From: a virus
Lineage: Duplodnaviria > Caudoviricetes
Strand: one strand, 5' to 3'
DNA length: 51,081 bases
IMG/VR virus record: IMGVR_UViG_3300037722_000278
Span: 1-51,081 of that record
Shown here: in pieces, positions 15,446 through 33,295 of the stretch
Layout: each line of letters begins with the position of its first letter
Position numbering within the stretch: position 1 is the stretch's first letter
Notes under the pieces: model-generated
Told to the model about the DNA's origin: nothing
The model's database searches: none
What the model saw: only the letters and a program-made list of their open reading frames with translations
Position numbers and translations under genes: made by a program

Positions 15446-15465
15446 TTAGCTGACAGGTTCCCAAT
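15446..15465 (-). repeat. 20-bp element ATTGGGAACCTGTCAGCTAA (copy 1, minus strand)
   Basis: Exact reverse complement of 30031-30050; lies in an AT-richer intergenic gap. Confidence 0.85.
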
Positions 15466-24896: not shown

Positions 24897-25135
24897 TTCC
24901 TTGTCCTCCTTGTGGGTGAGGTCGGCAGGTCAAACAACCTGCCAGTGTTCGGGGTCGGGACGCCATGGTCACGGCAGTAGACCCGACCGGTGTACTTCTT
25001 CTGTCTGAGCGTGCCCGCCCCGCCCGTCCGAGTGACCTGCTCGACGCCGGTCAACTCCCGGAACGAGTAGGGCTGGTCGGGGGAAACCGGTGCGCCACAA
25101 GTGACACACAGGCCAGCGACAGCCTTGTACTCCAT
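24893..25135 (-). CDS. Zinc-finger hypothetical protein
   Basis: CxxC...CxxH. Confidence 0.5.
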   Translation of the reverse strand: MEYKAVAGLCVTCGAPVSPDQPYSFRELTGVEQVTRTGGAGTLRQKKYTGRVYCRDHGVPTPNTGRLFDLPTSPTRRTRK

Positions 25136-25467
25136 TACGGTTTCCTACCTTCCTCGTAGCATGACCAGCATTTGCCGTTCCTGGTCTGAGTGCGTGGTGC
25201 GGTAACCCCGCAGGCGCATTCGACTCCGGCTCGCTGTTCGATGCTGAGGCCGGCGACGACACCAGGGATGGTGGGTCCGACAGGGTCGGTCATCACCCAG
25301 CGTCTGCACGGTTCCAACACCGGACAACTACGGCAAAGAGATTTGGCAGCGGGAGTGTTGCCTTTGACGGCGAGCCAGGTCTTGCCTAGGCAGGCAGCAT
25401 GCTCCTGCCATGGGTCGAGGTCGAGGGCAGGGTCCGTGCGGGACCCTGCCAGTTCGACCATGGTCAT
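25135..25467 (-). CDS. whiB: WhiB-family transcriptional regulator with extra C-terminal Cys cluster
   Basis: WQEHAAC...AKSLCRSCPV...C...GVVAGLS; additional CAC..CWSC. Confidence 0.85.
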   Translation of the reverse strand: MTMVELAGSRTDPALDLDPWQEHAACLGKTWLAVKGNTPAAKSLCRSCPVLEPCRRWVMTDPVGPTIPGVVAGLSIEQRAGVECACGVTAPRTQTRNGKCWSCYEEGRKP

Positions 25468-25772
25468 TTGTCGAAGACCACGACGTGGACTACGGCCTCG
25501 TCCTGGGCTGGGTCGCCGTTGGCGCCCTGGTACAGGAACACGGTGGGCACACCGTCGTCTGACCCGCCTGACGGGTTCAGGTAGATGTACTCGGTCGAGC
25601 CGCTGTCCTTCTCGGCACGCCAGCCTCCCAGGATCGGGTAGTAGGTCACGCCGCTGTCGACGTCGAACACCTCTTCGACGTCGAACACGGGGAAAAAGTC
25701 CTCGCCGTGGGTGGTCGCTGCCAGGTTGCCAGCGTCCTCTAGGTGGTGGTCGTCCCTGTAGAGACGCTCCAT
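25464..25772 (-). CDS. Hypothetical protein (YIYLNPS..SDDGVP.VF.Y)
   Basis: Preceded by the structured repeat and RBS. Confidence 0.65.
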   Translation of the reverse strand: MERLYRDDHHLEDAGNLAATTHGEDFFPVFDVEEVFDVDSGVTYYPILGGWRAEKDSGSTEYIYLNPSGGSDDGVPTVFLYQGANGDPAQDEAVVHVVVFDK

Positions 25773-25778
25773 GTTTGT

Positions 25779-25838
25779 CCTCCTTGTGGGTTGTGGTGCG
25801 AACGCACCAGGAGGGGCACCGTGGGTGCCCTACCTGCT
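25779..25838 (-). repeat. Structured intercistronic element copy A
   Basis: AGC-AGG-TA-GGGCACC cac GGTGCCC-CT-CCT-GGTGC gttc GCACC-acaa-CCCACAAGGAGG. Confidence 0.85.
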
Positions 25839-25866
25839 GTGTTCAGCGGTCTGGATTGTCAGCCCC

Positions 25867-26010
25867 CTACCCCGTAGGGTGGGGGCCGGGTAAACCAGGA
25901 TTGGTGTTGGGAGGCACTTCGTTGCCGTCACTGGTTACCACCCCCTCTGGTCCGTACGGCAGCGCTTCGGCGCTGCCGCTTAGGACAAGGACTAGTAGAA
26001 GCCAAAGCAT
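25867..26010 (-). CDS. Small putative secreted peptide (47 aa)
   Basis: MLWLLLVLVLSGSAEA|LPYGP...; RBS supplied by element B. Confidence 0.5.
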   Translation of the reverse strand: MLWLLLVLVLSGSAEALPYGPEGVVTSDGNEVPPNTNPGLPGPHPTG

Positions 26011-26020
26011 TTGCTATCGC

Positions 26021-26084
26021 CCTCCTTGTGGTTTGTGGTGCTGACTGCACCAGGAGGGGCACCCGTGAGGATGCCCTACCTGCT
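26021..26084 (-). repeat. Structured intercistronic element copy B
   Basis: AGC-AGG-TA-GGGCATCC tcac GGGTGCCC-CT-CCT-GGTGC agtca GCACC-acaaa-CCACAAGGAGG. Confidence 0.85.
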
Positions 26085-26331
26085 ACAGACCGAAGTCTTC
26101 GAACATGGCGGCAGCGCCGTCCATGTCATCGCCGAGAAGGTCGTACAGGGCGCCGATGGCAGGATCTGCCACCAGTGCCCCGTGTCTCTCTCCGAACGCT
26201 TCACAGCCTCGGACTCGGACGTCTGCGGACACGATGGCGTAGGTCGAGCCGTCGGCTTCGGCGTAGTCGTGGATGTAGTCGTTGTCCCATGGCTCGGAAC
26301 ACTGCGGGCATCGAATGTCCATCACAGCCAC
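26083..26331 (-). CDS. Hypothetical protein (DI.CP.C.EPWD...L...LGDD.DG...M.ED)
   Basis: Phage-family-like motif pattern; start may be 26322. Confidence 0.65.
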   Translation of the reverse strand: MAVMDIRCPQCSEPWDNDYIHDYAEADGSTYAIVSADVRVRGCEAFGERHGALVADPAIGALYDLLGDDMDGAAAMFEDFGL

Positions 26332-26753
26332 CTGGTGGGATCGTCACCGAAGTGACCGGCCAGGGCGTCGAGGATGTCGACACCATGCTCGGCGATCAGG
26401 ACGTCGTACTTCCAGCCTGTCAGAACTGGATTGCCCTGGCCGTCCTGCATCCGACTGGCGATCTCGGGCATGCCTGGCTTCCAGGCGTACTCGGTCTGCG
26501 GCCAGTCATAGCTCCCGCCATCGTTGGCGGTGAAGGCGACCTCGTTCTCGATCAGGAACTTGACTAGCTCCTGAATCCCTTCGTCTTCGTCGAAGCCGTA
26601 GTAGGCCTCTTCGATCACAACCTCGAACCTCTCGGGGCTGTTCTCGTCGTAGGAACTTCCGGCCTCGTCGGCTAGTTCCACGATTCGAGCGTGGACGTCC
26701 TGGCTGACACCTTCCATGCTGAACGTCATTTCGACGTAGCTGCGCTCACCCAT
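26322..26753 (-). CDS. Hypothetical acidic protein
   Basis: ATG 26753 follows the RBS of element D. Confidence 0.65.
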   Translation of the reverse strand: MGERSYVEMTFSMEGVSQDVHARIVELADEAGSSYDENSPERFEVVIEEAYYGFDEDEGIQELVKFLIENEVAFTANDGGSYDWPQTEYAWKPGMPEIASRMQDGQGNPVLTGWKYDVLIAEHGVDILDALAGHFGDDPTRWL

Positions 26754-26758
26754 CTGTT

Positions 26759-26822
26759 CCTCCTTGTGGGTATTGGTGCTGGTAGCACCGCCAGCCCCTG
26801 CGTTTAAACAGGGGTAGGCGCT
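26759..26822 (-). repeat. Structured intercistronic element copy D
   Basis: AGC-GCC-TA-CCCCTG tttaaacg CAGGGG-CT-GGC-GGTGC tacca GCACC-aata-CCCACAAGGAGG; stems fully compensated relative to A/B/C. Confidence 0.8.
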
Positions 26823-26827
26823 GTCAC

Positions 26828-27403
26828 CTAGCTCGGCCACATGACCTCGCCATCAGGGCATGACGGGTTGCCGACCTCCAACCATTTGGCCGTGGTCCGC
26901 ACCGTGTAGCCGCAGTCCAGACACTGGACTTTCAGCATCCGGGTCGACTGCTTCGGCCCCATAGCCTTCGGGTCGATCGCAGCATGAGGGAAGACCCCCA
27001 GGTCGCCTGCGACCTTCGTCAGATACTCCGTCAGCTTCTCCCCGGCGTGAGTCGAAGTGGGTTTGCCTTCCAGGCCTAGCTCTCGCATGCCCCGGGAGAA
27101 GGCTCCGCCATGCTTCGTGCCCGGAGGCAATGCGGCATGGAGGATTTCGTGTACCAGGGTGGCCAGGATCTCGACGGGGTCACCTAGGACCGGGCTGATG
27201 AAGAGTTGTGGGATCTCGTCGGCAGTGTTCGTGCCATACCAACACTGTCCGATAGTCCGGTTCTTCACGCTGACGGCCTTACGGCTGGGCCAGCCGACCG
27301 AGACTCGAACCTCGGGCATGTCGTATCCGGCGCCCTCGAAGAGTGTGGTGAGGGTCGTGGTGGCTTCTGTCAGCCACCCCTCCCGGTTGAGTGTCGTGGT
27401 CAT
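26828..27403 (-). CDS. SprT-like zinc metallopeptidase
   Basis: GQCW, LVHEILH...HG..F and C-terminal CxxC...CP. Confidence 0.8.
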   Translation of the reverse strand: MTTTLNREGWLTEATTTLTTLFEGAGYDMPEVRVSVGWPSRKAVSVKNRTIGQCWYGTNTADEIPQLFISPVLGDPVEILATLVHEILHAALPPGTKHGGAFSRGMRELGLEGKPTSTHAGEKLTEYLTKVAGDLGVFPHAAIDPKAMGPKQSTRMLKVQCLDCGYTVRTTAKWLEVGNPSCPDGEVMWPS

Positions 27404-27516
27404 GGCCGGTCTGCAAACGTCACCGATGCAACGAAGTAACCGATGGCCTCAAGAGCCTTCTGGATCTCGTCGGTGTCGATGGCGTCAGGGTCCGATGTGT
27501 AGACGACTATGTCCAT
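27400..27516 (-). CDS. Hypothetical protein (38 aa)
   Basis: RBS from element C; ATGA overlap with the SprT-like gene. Confidence 0.55.
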   Translation of the reverse strand: MDIVVYTSDPDAIDTDEIQKALEAIGYFVASVTFADRP

Positions 27517-27523
27517 CTCTGTC

Positions 27524-27584
27524 CCTCCTTGTGGGTGTGGTGGTGTGTCCACCAGGAGGGGCACCCGAAGGTGCCCTACCTGCT
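27524..27584 (-). repeat. Structured intercistronic element copy C
   Basis: AGC-AGG-TA-GGGCAC cttcgg GTGCCC-CT-CCT-GGTGG acaca CCACC-aca-CCCACAAGGAGG. Confidence 0.85.
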
Positions 27585-27586
27585 AG

Positions 27587-27841
27587 TCACAGGAAAGCGT
27601 CGAGGTGATGCCCTTCGACGATGGCCGATGCAGGCGCCGAGACCTCGCCACGCCATGAGATCCCCTCGGGGAGATCGATCAGGCGGTCGTAGTCCTCGTC
27701 GCCGAAGGCTGAGATCGCCTGCTTGCACGGGTCGATCATGGTGCTGGGCACCGGTGGGAAGTGGTTGGATGACAGGTGCCATCCGAGTGCAGTGTCGAGG
27801 TCGGCGACCTCGGCCATGCCCATGGCGGACAGGAGGCCCAT
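27587..27841 (-). CDS. Hypothetical protein (WHL..NHFPPVP...C..AI...AIVE.HHL)
   Basis: Pattern typical of actinobacterial phage early genes. Confidence 0.7.
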   Translation of the reverse strand: MGLLSAMGMAEVADLDTALGWHLSSNHFPPVPSTMIDPCKQAISAFGDEDYDRLIDLPEGISWRGEVSAPASAIVEGHHLDAFL

Positions 27842-27981
27842 TATCGGACCTTCGTCTCGGCCAGAAGCCGACGCTGAGACCTGGGCGAAACGAGCCAGAT
27901 ATAGGCTCGGCCACCCAGTTCCAGGAATTGGATCGGAATACGACCCTTGGCTGCCAGACTGGCAAGACCAGGAGTGTTCAT
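27841..27981 (-). CDS. Hypothetical protein (46 aa)
   Basis: RBS from element E; TAATG overlap. Confidence 0.55.
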   Translation of the reverse strand: MNTPGLASLAAKGRIPIQFLELGGRAYIWLVSPRSQRRLLAETKVR

Positions 27982-27986
27982 GTTGT

Positions 27987-28049
27987 CCTCCTTGTGGACA
28001 GGTGCGGAATCACACCACCAGGCCCACCAGTGACGATGGGCTAGGCGCT
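27987..28049 (-). repeat. Structured intercistronic element copy E
   Basis: AGC-GCC-TA-GCCCATC gtcact GGTGGGC-CT-GGT-GGTGTG attc CGCACC-tgt-CCACAAGGAGG. Confidence 0.75.
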
Positions 28050-28053
28050 GAGA

Positions 28054-28191
28054 TCAGATCGAAGTGATCGTGACGGCCCGGGGATACCTCGTCCCCATGA
28101 TTCTGAAAGCCATGTCCAGGTCGAGGGCCTGAATCTCGTTTATCACGCTGACCCATGTCCCGTGATGCGCCCTCATCTTGAAAGTTCTCAC
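28054..28191 (-). CDS. Hypothetical protein (45 aa)
   Basis: GTGA overlap with upstream gene; stop abuts element E. Confidence 0.4.
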   Translation of the reverse strand: MRTFKMRAHHGTWVSVINEIQALDLDMAFRIMGTRYPRAVTITSI

Positions 28192-28466
28192 AGAACGTCG
28201 GTCAGCTTGGCGACCACCGCCCGTGCCTCGGGCGGGGTCATAAACAGGTGTGTCTCCCCGATGGTCAGGTAGACCTTCCCGTCTTGGACGACGCCCGAAT
28301 TGACTCGCCGGGGCATGGTGTTCTTGCGAGGGTGGATGTCAACCGATACGAACGCACTGGTGCCTCCGTCGGGGTCGAGTTCAAACTCTCGGACATGGAC
28401 GGTGTGCTGGTCGTCGTGCGTCTCGTAGGCGGTGCCTGGCGAGCCGTAAAGGCTGCGTGTTTCCAT
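28188..28466 (-). CDS. Hypothetical protein, first early gene
   Basis: CCACAAGGAGG RBS before ATG 28466. Confidence 0.65.
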   Translation of the reverse strand: METRSLYGSPGTAYETHDDQHTVHVREFELDPDGGTSAFVSVDIHPRKNTMPRRVNSGVVQDGKVYLTIGETHLFMTPPEARAVVAKLTDVL

Positions 28467-28863
28467 GATGTCCTCCTTGTGGACAGCCACCGGCTGATGC
28501 CGGTAGGCCACCAGACCCCTCAGGTCTCACACGGTTTGAGCGATGCCAGAGGAGTCTGATGGCCCACCACCATGGGCCTAGTACAGGGCAGAGCATCAAG
28601 CCGTGATCTGAGCGCCAAGGTCCAAGCGCTAGGGCGCCGTCCATGTGCGTCTTGCCTTGCAGATGCCGTCGTATCCGTCAACTGCCCTGTACTAGGCCCA
28701 CCAGAGATGGGCCTCAAAGAGTTCATTCACTTGCCCCCAGCCTCGCTCGCCACGGACATCACCTGCCAAAGGCCTGAGAGAATCCCGACTCGTCGCCATC
28801 ACCACCCACTCGGGCCGTAGCGTACGCCGGACCTTGCCCCCGTATGTGCCGGGGTCAACCCCG

Positions 28864-28893
28864 ACTGTACAGCGACCAGTCCAGAACTGTCAA
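28864..28893 (-). promoter_or_regulatory. Sigma-A-type early promoter TTGACA-N18-TACAGT
   Basis: Consensus -35 and near-consensus -10 at the head of the early arm; spacer contains GACTGGTCG. Confidence 0.75.
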
Positions 28894-29683
28894 GGGCTGT
28901 GACCAGGGCTTATGCACCCATTCGTGGACTAGTCGGCCAGACTGACGCCGTAAGTAGGCACCAGAGTCGCCACCCGAGCGCAGAGCTTAGTACCCTGCAC
29001 CACGCAGTACCATGCACCACACGATACCCATGCGTGTCAGCCTCAGTGCTCAGGGTGCGGCTCAGTCACACTGTATTGGTGAGTGCTGCCGCATGCACAG
29101 TACCTGGCACTGCATGGTACTGAGCAGAGGGTGCCAGGGTCCACTCACTGTCCAGTACGTGGAACAGCGAGGTCGTGGAACCGTGCCAGCCACGAGGACG
29201 GCTCCCAGGCGGAAACCACCCCCCACCAGGCCTGACGGGGGACCGGGGTCCATAAGGTCGCCGTGCGACGCTATGGGGAAGGGCACGTAGTGGTGTGGCG
29301 TACAGGTTGCTCTGGGCTTTGTGCGGTTTCTGTGTCCGTAGTCTGTGTCTCTTGTGTGCTCGAGCCGCCGCAGGCGGCGTTCGAGCCTGAGTCTAGGTGC
29401 TGGGACCACGCCCACCCCTTCGCTGCCTCACCGTTTTTTCTGACATCGATGTCAGTTCTGGTCGTGATCACCATCATGTTGGTCTGTTCCAGCGTTTTTC
29501 GAGACATGGCTGGTCTCTGCCGTCTGACGGGCTGCTGCCGGGGCCCAGCCGGCTTCGGACTTGCGTCCTACTCGAGCGTCTGATCGTCTGTCGGCTTGCG
29601 TGGGGCGCCGGGGAGACCCTTGTCAGTATCCGCCCATGGAGCGACGAGACGCAACCGGCGGGTTGCACGTTCGTGTACCTCGT

Positions 29684-29700
29684 TGACACTGTTTGGGGGG
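29684..29700 (+). promoter_or_regulatory. Putative late promoter motif TGACA-N6-GGGGGG at start of RNA cluster
   Basis: Matches the bipartite motif. Confidence 0.55.
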
Positions 29701-29778
29701 CTTAGAGAAGAGCCGCTAAGGCTCCTTGTGGGAGCCGAGCCCTCTACGGGCCGGCACCGGGCGGTAAATCCCGCCCTT

Positions 29779-29846
29779 AAGTCTCGCACCGGGTGCGGGC
29801 TGGCCTCCAAAACCGGCCTTGCGGGGTTCGACACCTCGGGGACTTG
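29779..29846 (+). tRNA. tRNA-Trp(CCA)-like with reduced D-arm
   Basis: AAGTCTC/GGGACTT acceptor; CTCCAAA anticodon loop; CGGGG-TTCGACA-CCTCG T-arm; D-arm only GCAC-cgg-GTGC. Confidence 0.65.
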
Positions 29847-30030
29847 CTAGGACGAGAGAGACCTGCGCCCATCAGCGTGGTTCGTCCGCCGGAGTGATGC
29901 CCGTGCGCCTCTCGACCGAAACAGGCCACCGTCCAGGTGAGCTGAGACTGACGAAGGAGCCTATTCGGGCTCTCGAATCGGTCTCCACTCCTCACCTGGA
30001 CACCGGTCTGGACCTCCCCTCCACCCCAGA

Positions 30031-30050
30031 ATTGGGAACCTGTCAGCTAA
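30031..30050 (+). repeat. 20-bp element ATTGGGAACCTGTCAGCTAA (copy 2)
   Basis: Exact reverse complement of 15446-15465. Confidence 0.85.
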
Positions 30051-30080
30051 TTCGTCCTGATAGGGGTATGAGCACTGTGT

Positions 30081-30097
30081 TTACGCTGCCAGGGTGG
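30081..30097 (+). promoter_or_regulatory. Putative late promoter motif TTACG-N6-GGGTGG upstream of structured RNA
   Basis: Exact match to the motif core. Confidence 0.65.
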
Positions 30098-30103
30098 CTT
30101 ATG

Positions 30104-30560
30104 AGACACCCGATTAGGCGGACGCCGGCGGCACCGGCGGCCAGATGGGCGAACTGATCTAGCAGTGTGTGGTGTGTGAGCCCGGGATAAACGCTCCTGG
30201 CAGCCTCGCCAGATGGGGCACCTTCGGCCGGAAGGTGGAGTGTGAAGCCCGGGCCCGGCACGTTGACAACATGACGCAACTCGAGCTGAGTTGCAGGTGG
30301 TTGGTAAAGAGTCAGGAGGGAGACACCCCTCTGACCAACGGTGAAAGGCTTTTTATTGGGCTAGGTACCCAGGGTCATATAGCCGGATGAGGGGCAGCGG
30401 TGAGTGCTGCGGAACGGAGTGGTCTCCGGGCCGGTGGCTCCTGACTCTTTACGAGCCTCCTGCGACCCTGTATCCACGAGGGGGGTCGTATTGATAGATG
30501 ACTGCTATGCCTGGTGAGAAGTGGATCGAGCAGTCGCTTGACCCCAGCAGGGGGCTCGCA
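30104..30560 (+). ncRNA. Putative large structured ncRNA
   Basis: Perfect 15-bp stem 30304-30318/30438-30452; nested stems, pseudoknot and kissing-loop complementarities; no credible ORF. Confidence 0.55.
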
Positions 30561-30565
30561 CAGGT

Positions 30566-30643
30566 TGGATTCACCGCTTGGGGTGATAGGGCACCGTAAC
30601 CATCCGGGCCTTGAAGAGGGGAGTTCGAGACCCCCGAATCCAC
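30566..30643 (+). tRNA. tRNA-like element / pseudo-tRNA (anticodon unclear)
   Basis: TGGATTC/GAATCCA acceptor and GGGAG-TTCGAGA-CCCCC T-arm; anticodon arm enlarged. Confidence 0.4.
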
Positions 30644-30696
30644 GCAGGAGTCCCCCATCCGATCGGCGGGTCGCCCCCGAGGGGGCTCCAGCATTT

Positions 30697-30769
30697 GCCG
30701 AGGTAGCTCAGTGGCAGAGCACCGGGCTCATAACCCGGATGTCGTGCGGTTCGACTCCCACCTTCGGCT
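30697..30769 (+). tRNA. tRNA-Met(CAT)
   Basis: GCCGAGG/CTTCGGC acceptor; TAGCTCAGTGGCAGAGC D-arm; CCGGG-CTCATAA-CCCGG anticodon arm; T-arm with a 1-nt bulge. Confidence 0.85.
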
Positions 30770-30871
30770 CGGCGAGCCCTCAACTGGGTAAATAGCGGCG
30801 GTGGAAACCCTCGCCGGCTGGAACCCTCCCGCCACCGACATGGCGGGCCTGTCGGGGATAGGGCTCGCCTT

Positions 30872-30944
30872 ACCCCGGTCTGTCTAACTGGTAGGACGCC
30901 AGGCCCTGAACCTGGAAGTGGAGGTTCGAGTCCTTCCTGGGGTG
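30872..30944 (+). tRNA. tRNA-Gln(CTG)
   Basis: ACCCCGG/CTGGGGT acceptor; CCAGG-CCCTGAA-CCTGG anticodon arm; GGAGG-TTCGAGT-CCTTC T-arm; C at position 33. Confidence 0.75.
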
Positions 30945-30974
30945 CGGCCGGTGTATGACCCCGTTCATCCGGGG

Positions 30975-31031
30975 CGGCCGGTGGGCTTCTGGTTGATGTA
31001 GAACAGGAGGGTCCGATTCCCTCCCGGCCCG
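30975..31031 (+). tRNA. D-armless tRNA-like element
   Basis: GGCCGG/CCGGCC acceptor; TTCTG-GTTGATG-TAGAA arm; GAGGG-TCCGATT-CCCTC T-arm. Confidence 0.35.
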
Positions 31032-31039
31032 CTAGGTCT

Positions 31040-31056
31040 TGTCGCCCCTCGGGTGG
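31040..31056 (+). promoter_or_regulatory. Putative late promoter motif variant TGTCG-N6-GGGTGG before terminase
   Basis: In-frame GTG at 31063 lies 6 nt downstream. Confidence 0.55.
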
Positions 31057-31062
31057 ACGTAT

Positions 31063-32964
31063 GTGCATGCCTCCGTCTCGAAGATGTCCGTCGACCGCCG
31101 CATCGACGCAGCCATCTCCAAAGTGCTCGACACCGGATGGACCCAGTCTGAAGCCGCCCGCCACTACGGGATCAACCGTTCCAACCTGAACCGTCGGATC
31201 AAGCCGATCCGACAGCAGCGTGAAGCCAACGAACTCCGAGCTGCCGAAGAACTCCTCGCCGGCACACGCCAGCCTCTCATTCAAGAGACTCGACGTGTCG
31301 GCACCTTCGCCGAGTTCGAAGAGCGGTATTTCGGAGAGCTGATCTGCCCGGACTGTCAGGTCCACCATGAGACGCCCGAGTTCCACAAGGAGATCGCCGA
31401 GGCGATCGACTCCGACGCCCGCAGGATCCTCATCAACCTGCCCCCCTACCACTCGAAAAGCACGCTGGTAACTGTCAAACACACCGTCTACGACATTGCC
31501 AAGAATCCGAACTCCCGGACCATCATCGTCTCCAAGTCCGGGCCCTTCGCCAAATCCTTCCTCCACGCCATCAAGTCCTGGCTGTCGGTCGAAGAGCTGT
31601 ACCAGAACACGCAAGGCAACCTGATCAAGGACTTCGGCCCGTTCATGCCCGAGAACGAAGGCTGGTCCCAGTACGAGATCTACGTCCAGAACCGTCACAT
31701 GGCCGGCGGCGTCGAGAAAGACCCGACCGTCCTGTCCATGGGCTATGGCGGGCAGATCTACGGCCGGCGTGCCGACAAGATCAAGTTCGACGACATTGCC
31801 ACGCTCGAGAACCAGCGGAACCCCGAGCGTGTCGCCCAGATGATCGAGTGGCTCAACAAGGAGGCTCTGTCTCGTATCGGGAAGAGCGGGCAGGCTGTCT
31901 GGGCTGGCACTCGAGTCGCCCCCGGCGACATCTACTCGGTGCTGATGAACCGGCCCGGGTACAAGGTCATCAGGTATCCGGCGCTCATCGACGACGAACA
32001 CGAGCAGGTTCTCTGGCCGGAACACTTCCCCTACGAACAGGTACTCGTCCACCGGTCTGAGATGAGTCCCGCCGACTTCCAGCTCGTCTACCAGAACGTC
32101 GATGTCCCCGGTTTAAACGCCTCCTTCACTCAGGAGATCCTCGACGAGGCGAAAGACACTGATCGTCAGTTCGGTCACTACGAGACCGGATGGCGTCTCA
32201 TTGCCGGGCTCGACCCGGCCGGCGGGACCAAGGGGTCCGGGTATACGGCCCTCGTCTTGCTGGCTATCGATCTGAACACGGGGAAGCGGTTCGTCGTGGA
32301 CGCTGTCGCCGAGAAGGCGATGAAGGCGCCCCGGCTCAAGCAGCTCATGTTCGAGTGGACCGACCGCTACCCGATCTACGAGTGGCGTGTCGAGTCGAAC
32401 GGGCTCCAGTCGCAGCTCGTCCAGTACAACGAGGAGATCATCCAGCATCTCGCCAAGCGTGGCGTCAGGGTCATCCCCCACCAGACACATTCGAACAAGT
32501 GGGATCCCGAGTTCGGGGTCGAATCCATCGCCCCGCTCTTCTATGCAGACCTGGTCTCTATCCCGTGGGCTGGCGTCCAGTCAGCACAGAAGTTTCAGCG
32601 GCTCATCGAAGAGTTCGTCGCCTTCCCGATGGGGATCACCTCCGACCTGGTTATGGCTTTCTGGTTCGCCGACCTCGGGGCTCGAGACCTCCTACGCCGG
32701 GCACACCTTCCCATGTTCAACGAGCGGCTGCGGAAACGGTGGCCGAAGCGGATCCGATCCAGAGCCCGGGTCGTCAACTTCGAAGACCAGTCAGTCAGGC
32801 CAGTCTCCATGGAAGACCAGCGTCTCGGCCACATGACTCGGGGGCAGCAGGGCTACCGCAGGATGACTGTCGGCACCCCCACTCCGCACGGGTCTGTCCG
32901 TGAGTTCGAGGCTGAGCCTGTCGAGAAGCCGATGAATATCGACCCGAAGATCTGGACGCCCTGA
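31063..32964 (+). CDS. terL: Terminase large subunit with N-terminal HTH
   Basis: INLPPYHSKST (Walker A), GRRADKIKFDD (Walker B), GTR, GLDPA and DLVMA nuclease motifs; start is 31063 or 31084. Confidence 0.92.
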   Translation: MHASVSKMSVDRRIDAAISKVLDTGWTQSEAARHYGINRSNLNRRIKPIRQQREANELRAAEELLAGTRQPLIQETRRVGTFAEFEERYFGELICPDCQVHHETPEFHKEIAEAIDSDARRILINLPPYHSKSTLVTVKHTVYDIAKNPNSRTIIVSKSGPFAKSFLHAIKSWLSVEELYQNTQGNLIKDFGPFMPENEGWSQYEIYVQNRHMAGGVEKDPTVLSMGYGGQIYGRRADKIKFDDIATLENQRNPERVAQMIEWLNKEALSRIGKSGQAVWAGTRVAPGDIYSVLMNRPGYKVIRYPALIDDEHEQVLWPEHFPYEQVLVHRSEMSPADFQLVYQNVDVPGLNASFTQEILDEAKDTDRQFGHYETGWRLIAGLDPAGGTKGSGYTALVLLAIDLNTGKRFVVDAVAEKAMKAPRLKQLMFEWTDRYPIYEWRVESNGLQSQLVQYNEEIIQHLAKRGVRVIPHQTHSNKWDPEFGVESIAPLFYADLVSIPWAGVQSAQKFQRLIEEFVAFPMGITSDLVMAFWFADLGARDLLRRAHLPMFNERLRKRWPKRIRSRARVVNFEDQSVRPVSMEDQRLGHMTRGQQGYRRMTVGTPTPHGSVREFEAEPVEKPMNIDPKIWTP

Positions 32965-32978
32965 CGCTGCTTGGGCGG
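32962..32978 (+). promoter_or_regulatory. Putative late promoter motif TGACG-N6-GGGCGG, 8 nt before ATG 32987
   Basis: Matches the motif. Confidence 0.65.
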
Positions 32979-32986
32979 ACAGATAG

Positions 32987-33295
32987 ATGTCAACACTGAG
33001 TGACCGCCGCCGTGACCGGCGGAACCGGGCCGCCTTCAACCGAGCCAAGACCAAGGCAGGCGAGGATGGGATGGTCTGCGGCTACACGGATCCCGAGGGG
33101 AACCCCCGTTATTTCGTGACGCCACGAGGGACTCCAGACGAGGAGGTCCGAGAGCGAGCCTTCCAGGCGATCCACGGCCGGCCCATGAACCGAGCCGAAC
33201 AGCTCCTCGACGCTGCCCAGTCAGGCGACCTGATCCGAGCCTACGAGCAGGCGATGACCCACTATCTCGACAGAACTCCCGTGGCTGATGTTTGA
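32987..33295 (+). CDS. Hypothetical protein
   Basis: Between terminase and portal; leaderless start. Confidence 0.6.
   Translation: MSTLSDRRRDRRNRAAFNRAKTKAGEDGMVCGYTDPEGNPRYFVTPRGTPDEEVRERAFQAIHGRPMNRAEQLLDAAQSGDLIRAYEQAMTHYLDRTPVADV

Follow-up and report, generated by a model that had tools for sequence, protein, structure and literature searches.

Large structured RNAs such as GOLLD and ROOL, as well as theta (HDV-like) ribozymes, occur beside phage tRNAs, and phage T7 carries RNase III processing hairpins between its genes. tRNAs with a reduced D-arm exist in mitochondria, and a G3.U70 pair has a recognised role in tmRNA. In Mycobacterium phage Trike, annotated genes for tRNA-Trp(cca), tRNA-Gln(ctg) and tRNA-Asn lie beside the small terminase gene. 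For Mycobacterium phage DS6A, a tag-less mini-tmRNA that consists of the tRNA-like domain (TLD) only is described (Hudson, Lau and Williams 2014, PMC4131195), and natural non-canonical tRNAs of bacteria and phages with acceptor/T-stem lengths of 8/4 and 9/3 appear in the abstracts of two further papers (Mukai et al. 2017, PMC5389517; Krahn et al. 2020, PMC7609411).

Standard tRNA finders usually set the limit of what is annotated in phage tRNA clusters. Here, we describe a cluster in which default settings miss three of five tRNA-shaped genes. The window, i.e., the whole stretch of 51,081 nt of caudoviricete DNA that was analysed (IMG/VR record IMGVR_UViG_3300037722_000278), has a divergent setting with early genes on the - strand up to 28511 and the large terminase gene terL on the + strand. 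Before terL, 1.3 kb of ORF-free DNA is pieced together from two normal tRNA genes, three aberrant tRNA-shaped ones and very stable hairpins. The units exist and fold, all five tRNA-shaped ones lie on the + strand behind a conserved motif, the spacers between them are stable hairpin modules, and strains differ by the gain or loss of single units. In kind, the locus is a phage tRNA cluster with tRNA mimics, which is already known; the variant is new. We favour, with a probability of roughly 0.55, the reading that 29685-31083 is the leader of a rightward (late) operon, enlarged to an array of separate RNA gene modules, including the processing and mimicry outlined below. The leader spans ~1370 nt here vs 200-370 nt in relatives that share its promoter-like motif. 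Its features are given below, where the z-scores of single elements are flattering because the windows were chosen after the stems had been seen.

29685 to 29712, + strand: conserved promoter-like motif (TTGACA, 4-5 nt, TTTGGGnGG, then a TAnnAG-like element) that opens the leader
29779 to 29847, + strand: non-canonical tRNA-Trp(CCA) with a 7-bp acceptor, a mini D-arm and a normal T-arm
29850 to 29887, + strand: hairpin present in the MFE structure
29922 to 30010, + strand: long hairpin with irregular pairing, core 29931-30001; its CGAA/CGAA internal loop is symmetric
30032 to 30050, + strand: 19-nt exact repeat, second copy at 15446-15464 on the - strand
30165 to 30262, + strand: weak three-way junction (z -2.83; 1 of 200 shuffles as good)
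30290 to 30466, + strand: domain with an imperfect closing helix of 29 nt, the 15-bp core of which is perfect (z -4.27)
30566 to 30643, + strand: degenerate tRNA-shaped unit, matched by the strict skeleton scan, with a cloverleaf-like MFE structure (z -1.53)
30644 to 30696, + strand: hairpin before tRNA-Met (z -3.33; 0 of 200 shuffles as good)
30697 to 30770, + strand: tRNA-Met(CAT), called by ARAGORN at default settings; Rfam tRNA (RF00005) 65.9 bits vs a gathering score of 29
30771 to 30871, + strand: structured Met-Gln spacer closed by a 10-bp helix (z -4.01; 0 of 200 shuffles as good)
30872 to 30945, + strand: tRNA-Gln(CTG), called by ARAGORN at default settings; Rfam tRNA 50.0 bits
30945 to 31032, + strand: terminal tRNA-shaped unit, a T-arm with loop TCCGATT and an acceptor-like stem (z -1.55)
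31039 to 32964, + strand: large terminase gene terL (phrog_38 match, 5e-73), coordinates of the listed ORF, likely start ATG at 31084

A preliminary description of this DNA had found no credible ORF in the region, which was borne out by negative codon-usage scores for every ORF in 28512-31038. None of the 20 ORFs tested within 28248-30795 had a PHROG or Pfam family, and among 88 stop-to-stop ORFs overlapping 26000-31100, matches in relatives were confined to terL, its opposite-strand ORFs and one weak 31-aa hit. The longest ORF is broken in a sibling strain by a 1-nt deletion at 30013. The tRNAs described as interleaved with the region are real, since tRNA-Met and tRNA-Gln are recognised by both ARAGORN and Rfam. 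A strict tRNA-skeleton scan (7/7 acceptor pairs, T-arm, T[TC]CGA loop) of the whole window on both strands yielded three matches, at 29779, 30566 and 30872, all on the + strand in the region, vs a shuffled mean of 0.5; tRNA-Met was missed because of an extra base in its T-stem. In Xanthomonas phage Elanor, a tRNA-Met locus that is not annotated aligns with tRNA-Met and the 3' 38 nt of the hairpin before it (76% over 112 columns). Three further tRNA-shaped units had been overlooked in the preliminary description.

The first of these, the Trp unit, combines a 7-bp acceptor, a 5-bp T-stem, a 7-nt TTCGAnn loop and a 7-nt anticodon loop with U33 and purine 37, as seen in the ARAGORN drawing and in an alignment to R1, a model built from the counterpart in the relatives L005 and L006. 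In place of a standard D-arm, with a 3-4-bp stem and a loop of ~7-11 nt, it has a hairpin of 4-5 bp capped by a CGG loop of 3 nt, and its anticodon loop CUCCAAA is closed by a C.A mismatch. The MFE structure is a cloverleaf, and the unit passed the strict skeleton scan. Elements that we take to mark Trp identity are present, namely A1-U72, a G that follows the acceptor stem, and a CCA anticodon; the anticodon loop, A1 and the 3' end TGC match the annotated tRNA-Trp of Trike. ARAGORN made no call at default settings and called the unit only at a lowered threshold (-ps, -mt). There was also no Rfam tRNA hit at gathering score, the best clan match being tRNA-Sec with 16.9 bits vs a gathering score of 47. 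At -ps, ARAGORN gave only eight calls in 41 related loci, three of them of the same Trp kind (L005, L006 and L028, which duplicates L006).

In searches with R1, the Trp unit was the best non-self match (25.7 bits, E ~1e-3 from an only roughly calibrated model), and the window's canonical tRNA-Met and tRNA-Gln both scored below it (17.6 and 14.0 bits). In the resulting alignment, which was made by the covariance model and leans towards that model, 97.6% of 82 cells are paired and 13 of 24 pairs are changed on both sides. The mini D-hairpin core and the UCCAAA loop are common to the Trp unit and its counterpart in L005/L006, whose terL is 61% identical to the window's and which carry the same reduced design with different stem sequences. 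Because this design is conserved with different stems in a distant relative, the unit is probably a working RNA of undescribed shape; a limited literature search found no published description of a mini-D-arm tRNA design. A second 'Trp' call in L005, L006 and L042, made at -ps85, did not look like the same RNA and was dropped.

Unit 30566-30643 has a perfect 7-bp acceptor, a T-arm with a TTCGAGA loop and one mismatch, and a long irregular anticodon-side stem with an 8-nt loop. The name 'Tyr(gta)' was given by ARAGORN at -ps80 only, where false calls are many; such calls (Tyr, Ser) are weak, as at -ps85 the coding DNA of relatives already yields roughly one 'tRNA' every 1-2 kb. The interior of unit 30945-31032 is not tRNA-like; Rfam tRNA-Sec matches the unit with 17.3 bits (E 3), and R1 with 25.5 bits over the acceptor and T-arm only. 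Its position directly before terL is that of a mini-tmRNA in the closest relative, L003 (terL 75% identical), where a gene for the tRNA-like domain only (60.3 bits vs a gathering score of 47) lies 29 nt before terL. Mini-tmRNAs also occur in L004 (61.6 bits) and L016. No tmRNA (RF00023) match to unit 30945-31032 was among those listed at E ≤ 10 and none reached the gathering score of 47; the third acceptor pair is G-C, and the G3.U70 pair and the UUCGAC motif of the L003, L004 and L016 copies are absent.

Two 'late motifs' had been proposed as promoters of the region. The one placed at 29684 is supported by conservation upstream of terL: the promoter-like motif is found by regular expression in the window, in L003, of which L021 is a duplicate, in L023 and in L025, each time on the + strand and, in the relatives, 200-370 nt before terL, and a variant seen by eye in L024 brings the number of relatives to four. 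The one placed at 30081 did not hold up, as GGCTTAGAGA with at most one mismatch has 4 matches vs 2.34 expected, and neither position 30081 nor the start of any other late gene is among the places matched. Prediction of sigma-70-type promoters gave no call at either 29685 or 30032, and the TTGACA of the conserved motif is only 14 nt from the -10-like hexamer. Exact and degenerate scans for the motif in viral contigs gave 0 matches. Rightward transcription is favoured by two points, this motif at 29685 and the strand on which the tRNAs are encoded. The second copy of the 19-nt repeat 30032-30050, at 15446, lies in an intergenic gap ~55 nt before a - strand ATG; each copy runs with the local direction of transcription, and the repeat has 2 matches at ≤ 3 mismatches vs 0 in 100 shuffles. 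A sigma-54-like reading of the repeat, in which GG and GC stand 12 nt apart, remained an unsupported idea.

The region folds better than shuffled controls, with z -7.33 for the + strand and z -3.93 for the - strand of 29700-30696, compared with z -1.24 for terL coding sequence and z -0.21 for 28600-29596. Early genes on the - strand at 26000-26996 reach z -8.77, so that RNA genes are not alone in having a strong z in this genome. Sliding windows of 120 nt show nothing unusual, most of them having z above -2. The CGAA/CGAA hairpin of 71 nt (29931-30001), which had been noticed before, is present (-45.0 kcal/mol, z -5.99, 0 of 200 shuffles as good) as part of hairpin 29922-30010, where ~26 bp form three stacked helices and a 6-bp outer helix is added. 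Also present is the perfect 15-bp helix 30304-30318/30438-30452, which extends to a 29-nt, 86% complementary pairing of 30290-30318 with 30438-30466. The proposed tertiary contacts fared otherwise. Loop-to-downstream pseudoknots number 2 in the region vs 2.5 +/- 1.5 in dinucleotide shuffles, 146 of 200 of which have at least two, and the case at 30197 was not found at 6 nt. The supposed kissing pair ATCCAC/GTGGAT is at chance level, with 34 such 6-nt complementary pairs in the region vs 24.7 in shuffles.

Sibling strains, represented by DNA contigs from other samples with variants in runs X2-X5, differ by whole units; the sites at which the phage occurs are sediment and soil. One contig of run X3 joins 30694 to 30870, skipping 175 nt, and has neither tRNA-Met nor the spacer 30771-30871; in another, 30310-30478 is replaced by 27 nt, so that the interior of domain 30290-30466 (141-nt domain) is absent. 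Among 14 substitutions in 29848-30565, the best-supported differences listed from low-depth contigs with 23 more beyond them, the + strand fold leaves 6 unpaired, 5 with pairing kept and 3 broken, vs 7, 2 and 5, respectively, in the - strand fold. This test is weak, the probability of at most 3 disruptive substitutions in 14 being 0.013 if all substitutions are equally likely and 0.38 if only transitions occur. In hairpin 29850-29887, 29861 A>G and 29886 C>T turn Watson-Crick pairs into G.U pairs. In hairpin 29922-30010, run X3 has 29951 A>G, giving G.U, 29962 T>C and 30007 T>C, giving G-C, and an apical loop changed from AUUC to UUCG. In the three-way junction, 30252 G>A breaks a pair, and three substitutions at 30378-30382 fall in an unpaired stretch of domain 30290-30466.

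Counterparts of the region outside these strains are few. Megablast and blastn against 50,697 phage records found tRNAs only (at most 7% of the query covered), and the middle 720 nt have no nucleotide homologue in 40 related loci with terL 52-76% identical. Across 28000-31040, blastn against the same 40 loci gave only three short matches, 29512-29566, 29239-29265 and 30482-30535. In the leaders of L023, L024 and L025, the only Rfam match at E ≤ 0.5 is to a tRNA-Met on the - strand of L025. In terL, homology to relatives begins at ORF residue 17-18, and the N-terminus includes an extra conserved region of ~130 aa that is absent from Streptomyces-phage terminases. The one genome match for terL, 47% identical, is L046, a contig of an Acidimicrobiia MAG, which gives a weak hint at the host; its leader has no tRNA, mimic or motif.

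Known non-coding RNA families were searched with Rfam, where tRNA is the only family to reach gathering score; below threshold, miRNA, tRNA-Sec and similar models match at E ≤ 10. GOLLD and ROOL have no match at E ≤ 10 in 29000-31300 or 29650-31060 and none at gathering score in the whole window. No HDV-type match was found at E ≤ 10 in the region; when spacer 30771-30871 was threaded by eye onto an HDV-like fold, a 6-bp P1 formed, but L3 would be only 4 nt long and P1.1 would have no partner, and this by-eye reading was dropped. Hammerheads are absent from the window at gathering score, from the region at E ≤ 10 and from 8500-29700 at E ≤ 1. The relatives L004, L005, L006, L012 and L016 carry 20 type II hammerhead copies on the - strand. 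A hammerhead reading of the CGAA hairpin was rejected by eye, its CUGACGA...CGAA letters being used in a plain helix. The packaging-RNA role suggested for the locus found no support either, as Rfam gave no phi29-type pRNA match and the terminase is of the phrog_38 large-terminase type, not the phi29-like portal/ATPase with which pRNA is associated.

The preliminary description had left a choice between a new large ncRNA and a set of RNA modules. A set of modules fits the separately folding + strand units and the siblings that have lost single units. That the whole locus, or the middle block 29848-30565, acts as one multi-domain ncRNA like GOLLD or ROOL is very improbable, even though this 718-nt block folds with z -4.79 on the + strand (0 of 20 shuffles as good; z -3.46 on the - strand), contains long closing helices and a multibranch domain, is ORF-free with tRNA-shaped genes on both flanks, and has substitutions in its 5' hairpin stems that are all wobble-compatible on the + strand (5/5). 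Against these points stand the Rfam result and the missing homologues in the 40 loci and 50,697 records, the loss of a 141-nt core domain from a sibling strain, tertiary contacts at chance level, and long-range pairs of the global MFE structure that are unstable between MFE and centroid; moreover, the modules that can be identified are tRNA-derived. If the long inverted repeats instead act as DNA, e.g., as a pac/cos site, a replication origin or operators of a divergent early/late control region, then their place between diverging operons directly before a terL with an extra conserved N-terminus would be natural, the - strand would be expected to beat shuffles as it does (z -3.46 to -3.93), as symmetric DNA palindromes should, and the 19-nt repeat 30032/15446 would resemble a protein-binding or promoter site. 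Further long hairpins do lie outside the tRNA array, at 28495-28575 and 29036-29124. We nevertheless regard a DNA role as unlikely: the G.U pairs and wobble-type substitutions at 29861, 29886 and 29951 would be mismatched in DNA and equally in RNA of the - strand, folding is better for the + strand, the largest palindrome is missing in a sibling strain, and the 127-nt terminal repeat of the record is far off at 1/50955 (it may be an assembly artefact).

The same deletions of whole units are what dispensable DNA would undergo, and they bring up a decaying tRNA cluster whose only working genes are tRNA-Met and tRNA-Gln, with pseudogenes for tRNA-like units and with hairpins that rearrangements left behind as neutral remnants. 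The ruined anticodon and D regions of units 30566-30643 and 30945-31032 fit such decay, as does the lack of a counterpart of most of the region in relatives with terL 60-75% identical. As an account of the whole locus it is unlikely, since decay would not give the reduced Trp design twice, with different stems in L005/L006, the hairpins are far more stable than shuffles, and phage genomes rarely keep 1.3 kb of junk. Decidedly unlikely, to our minds, is a bolder possibility, that the leader is a precursor of small non-decoding RNAs (tRNA top-half mimics, the reduced tRNA-Trp and stable hairpins) made in bulk at the onset of late transcription, which soak up or evade host factors acting on tRNA, e.g., processing enzymes, factors for ribosome rescue or defence nucleases that cut tRNA. 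Were it so, the gain and loss of cassettes from strain to strain would be the trace of an arms race, and the reduced D-arm and mismatched anticodon-loop closure of the Trp unit would reflect nuclease escape with decoding kept, not decay.

For the favoured reading, a late-operon leader grown into an array of RNA genes, we infer transcription, processing and charging as well as any role of the 720-nt middle block. Transcription would begin after the conserved motif at 29685, perhaps with a second start near the 19-nt repeat at 30032, and the transcript would pass five tRNA-shaped units and several long hairpins into terL. Judging from the general bacterial handling of tRNA-shaped RNAs, host RNase P and 3' tRNA-processing enzymes would excise the tRNA-shaped units. 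The irregular helices of ~26-29 bp would be RNase III-type substrates and are probably processing or stability elements that part the small RNAs from the terminase message; for the hairpins of the middle block, such a role is a guess. The products would be ordinary tRNA-Met and tRNA-Gln, a conserved, structurally reduced tRNA-Trp(CCA) that may still decode, and two units limited to the acceptor and T-arm, which could be decayed tRNA genes or non-decoding mimics comparable to the tag-less mini-tmRNA that the closest relative has at the same spot.

Should the tRNA-shaped units be decoys or nuclease-resistant tRNAs, they would add to the picture of phage tRNAs as counter-defence tools; should they be decay products, they document a fast turnover of such clusters between strains. 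Since this phage group also has tag-less mini-tmRNAs and type II hammerhead arrays, it offers a rich natural collection of small structured RNAs around the early/late switch.

Among the systems introduced above, GOLLD, ROOL and theta ribozymes resemble the locus in that structured non-coding sequence adjoins phage tRNA genes, but the region has no Rfam match to them and its block is not conserved. The irregular helices resemble the T7 hairpins in shape only: both make two or more turns, have internal loops and lie between functional units of a transcript, which here would likewise be polycistronic. The Trp unit is called in the mitochondrial mode of ARAGORN. Like the non-canonical tRNAs in the abstracts of the two papers cited, it departs from the cloverleaf and keeps acceptor, anticodon and T-arm; unlike the 8/4 and 9/3 cases presented there, its D-arm is cut to a hairpin with a 3-nt loop and its anticodon stem is lengthened. 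With the DS6A mini-tmRNA, the terminal unit would share the design of a phage-borne, non-decoding RNA that keeps the acceptor/T-arm half, and L003 has such a gene at the position of this unit; it differs in having no tmRNA match, no G3.U70 pair and no UUCGAC motif. The Trike cluster likewise has tandem tRNA genes on the structural-gene strand near the terminase, and the Trp(CCA)+Gln(CUG) pair is common to both, with the two tRNA-Gln genes 82% identical over 73 nt. Unlike in Trike, only two of the five units in the window are canonical, the spacers are stably folded and 50-720 nt long instead of a few bases, and the array lies in the untranslated leader of terL.

The best-supported reading of 29700-31035, which a preliminary description had presented as a 1.3-kb structured RNA locus with pseudoknots and kissing loops (perhaps a new large ncRNA, perhaps a set of RNA modules), is a modular array of RNA genes in the leader of the late operon. 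The record is complete (51,081 bases, ~61% G+C, a 127-nt repeat at each end), and ORFs were judged by a codon-usage score trained on the window's long genes. This score is negative for every ORF within 28512-31038, and none of the 20 tested ORFs lying in 28248-30795 belongs to a PHROG or Pfam family; the earlier statement that the region holds no credible ORF thus stands. On both grounds, diverging early and late operons are separated by 2.5 kb of ORF-free sequence, and the RNA region lies in its right-hand half. Starting at 31039, the plus strand encodes the large terminase, the portal and large structural genes.

Features in and around the ORF-free gap
26828-27403, 27587-27841, 28054-28191, 28188-28511 and others, minus: left-hand genes by codon usage (26828-27403 matches phrog_6361)
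29685-29712, plus: conserved motif (TTGACA, 4-5 nt, TTTGGGnGG, then a TAnnAG-like hexamer)
29779-29847, plus: Trp-like unit, called tRNA-Trp(cca) by ARAGORN at a slightly lowered threshold (-ps) or in mitochondrial mode
30566-30643, plus: unit whose acceptor stem is perfect and T-arm nearly so; an irregular stem (9 bp, 8-nt loop) stands in for the anticodon arm
30697-30770, plus: tRNA-Met (ARAGORN, Rfam)
30872-30945, plus: tRNA-Gln (ARAGORN, Rfam)
30945-31032, plus: unit with a T-arm and acceptor-like stem only
from 31039, plus: large terminase, terL (phrog_38, E 5e-73)

Searching with terL yielded 18 viral and 23 metagenomic loci (contigs partly shared) at 52-76% identity, and one MAG contig at 47%. 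The latter, a 48-kb contig binned to Acidimicrobiia, was the sole match to terL in 185,579 species genomes; it hints weakly at an actinobacterial host, unless it is a binning artefact. Similarity to the relatives sets in at residues 17-18 of the ORF, so terL probably begins at ATG 31084. The relatives also keep an extra N-terminal region of ~130 aa (31084-31470) that Streptomyces-phage terminases lack, their alignment starting no earlier than residue 130. Since no separate small terminase gene was seen, this region may represent a fused domain for DNA recognition.

A ~30-nt motif on the plus strand precedes terL by 200-370 nt in three relatives (L003, the closest, L023 and L025), with a variant in a fourth (L024). 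Its conservation lends support to the promoter proposed at 29684, and the copy at 29685-29712 is the strongest contender for a rightward promoter or a site controlling it; a second "late motif" proposed at 30081 found no such backing. Because the motif lies ~1,370 nt ahead of terL in the window, the RNA island reads as an expansion of the late leader. A related motif (TTGACG, 5-6 nt, TTGGGnGGA...) resembles the leader motif and sits exactly at the terL end in the window (32959-32990) and two relatives (L003 5399, L025 3673). Only two copies of an exact 19-nt repeat (89% over 27 nt) occur genome-wide, at 30032-30050 (plus) and 15446-15464 (minus); both are intergenic and oriented along local transcription, which makes the repeat a promoter or operator candidate.

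Besides tRNA-Met and tRNA-Gln, the region holds three further tRNA-outlined units that had been overlooked. A strict skeleton scan (7/7 acceptor pairs with a T[TC]CGA-loop T-arm directly after them, length 60-95 nt) of both strands of the whole window returned exactly three places, 29779-29845, 30566-30642 and tRNA-Gln, all on the plus strand inside the region, against a mean of 0.5 in shuffled windows. The Trp-like unit folds alone as a cloverleaf and agrees with the annotated tRNA-Trp of Mycobacterium phage Trike in the anticodon loop, the first base and the 3' end; its D-arm is reduced to a hairpin of 4-5 bp whose loop has 3 nt, and its anticodon loop is closed by C.A. The labels "Tyr" (30566-30643) and "Ser" (30945-31032) that ARAGORN assigns at -ps80, a setting that over-calls heavily, are untrustworthy. 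In Xanthomonas phage Elanor (ON189045.1), an unannotated tRNA-Met lies just past the large terminase gene (1540-1615 of the locus); at 76% identity, it and the preceding 38 nt match window 30659-30766, suggesting that both phages share a tRNA-Met cassette and its leader.

By blastn, none of the terL-retrieved relatives has nucleotide similarity to 29700-31035, so the block appears to be lineage-specific. The reduced Trp design recurs in two of them (L005 and L006, terL 61% identical): in their tRNA-Trp(cca), the acceptor stem has 7 bp, the D-hairpin has 5 bp and a YGG loop of 3 nt, the T-arm is normal, and the anticodon stem is lengthened, with an A.C mismatch closing it beneath a UCCAAA loop. 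In a covariance model built from these two units only, the best non-self match is the window's Trp-like unit (25.7 bits, E ~1e-3 in 272 kb), which outranks the window's canonical tRNAs. The resulting alignment, which is model-fitted and leans towards the model, pairs in 97.6% of 82 cells, with both partners differing in 13 of 24 pairs. This recurrence argues for a maintained gene rather than a wreck.

Two of the structures described earlier are confirmed. The 71-nt hairpin at 29931-30001, with its two CGAA strands opposed, folds at -45.0 kcal/mol versus -26.1 in shuffles (z -5.99, equalled by 0/200), and the perfect 15-bp helix 30304-30318/30438-30452 forms the core of a 29-nt helix (86% complementary) enclosing a domain with z -4.27. 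Folding far surpasses shuffled sequence over long plus-strand stretches, with z -7.33 for 29700-30696 (minus strand -3.93) and -4.79 for the middle block, 29848-30565 (minus strand -3.46); in 120-nt sliding windows within the region, z is mostly above -2. Controls were mixed and gave -1.24 (terL coding), -0.21 (28600-29596) and -8.77 (early genes, 26000-26996, minus); strong z-scores are therefore not peculiar to the RNA locus. At 24899-27584, read on the minus strand, an intergenic module is repeated ahead of successive early genes (direct-repeat families D6, D7, D13, D18); it consists of a short GC hairpin and, after it, a conserved ribosome-binding stretch of CCACAAGGAGG type, and probably explains the value of -8.77. 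Two further long near-perfect hairpins lie in the gap outside the described block, at 28495-28575 (sliding z -7.25, minus strand; overlapping the first early gene's start) and 29036-29124; their weak matches to miRNA-precursor models mean merely that they are long hairpins.

Parts of the stretch occur in nine DNA runs, all of sediment or soil origin, and in no listed RNA run; contigs from four of the nine were compared over 28500-31500. One joins 30694 to 30870 between two TT dinucleotides, removing tRNA-Met and a structured spacer (175 nt); another carries 27 nt in place of 30310-30478, losing the large domain's interior and keeping the helix base. The strain differences as a whole point firmly to modularity, and mildly to a plus-strand RNA. 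All five stem substitutions in hairpins 29850-29887 and 29922-30010 keep plus-strand pairing (A-U or G-C to G.U, G.U to G-C), and an apical loop there changes from AUUC to UUCG. Among the best-supported differences listed, which come from low-depth contigs, 14 substitutions fall in the middle block; 3 of them break pairs in the plus-strand fold, significant against an any-substitution null (P 0.013) and not significant against a transitions-only null (P 0.38), and 5 do so in the minus-strand fold.

A categorically new, large ornate RNA is not supported by these data: apart from tRNA the block has no Rfam match at the gathering score, it shows no conservation in the terL-retrieved relatives, one domain is dispensable, and the proposed tertiary contacts are at chance level. 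Loop-to-downstream pseudoknots number 2 in the region versus 2.5 +/- 1.5 in dinucleotide shuffles (at least 2 in 146/200), the one at 30197 falls short of 6 nt, and the 6-nt loop-loop match is one of 34 such pairs versus 24.7 in shuffles. DNA-level palindromes serving packaging, replication or control are a possible explanation for part of the block, against which stand the dependence of the stems on G.U and the strand asymmetry of folding. Plain decay is likely for the units at 30566-30643 and 30945-31032, but not for the Trp unit.

Under the modular-array reading, the array would be transcribed rightward from the motif at 29685-29712 and cut into units by host tRNA-processing enzymes. The two long irregular helices (26-29 bp) resemble the type that RNase III cuts in phage transcripts, for example in T7. 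The products would be two standard tRNAs, one reduced tRNA-Trp, which is probably functional and presumably charged, and two units with the acceptor/T-arm half only. Some units may act as decoys.

The phage group is rich in small RNAs. Tag-less mini-tmRNAs, reduced to the tRNA-like domain and bearing an acceptor stem of the G3.U70 type, occur in three relatives:

L003, 3389-3469, plus: 29 nt upstream of terL; 60.3 bits with the tmRNA model, against a gathering score of 47
L004, 706-807, minus: above the Rfam tmRNA gathering score
L016, 346-422, minus: found by motif scan and by eye only

The window's last unit (30945-31032) lies at the position of the L003 copy. A tag-less mini-tmRNA reportedly inhibits tmRNA, perhaps via SmpB titration (PMC4131195). 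Five relatives (L004, L005, L006, L012, L016) carry 20 type II hammerhead ribozymes on the minus strand (38-55 bits, above the gathering score), ~350-450 nt apart among early genes, 1.4-5 kb upstream of terL; an Rfam search of the window found none.

The closest known systems are phage tRNA clusters of the ordinary kind that lie next to packaging genes, as in Trike, the TLD-only mini-tmRNAs (Mycobacterium phage DS6A; PMC4131195) and non-canonical tRNAs. Three aspects are new: two lineages have a D-arm-reduced tRNA-Trp in common, the array is housed in an enlarged terminase leader that a conserved motif precedes, and the gain and loss of cassettes can be seen directly between strains.
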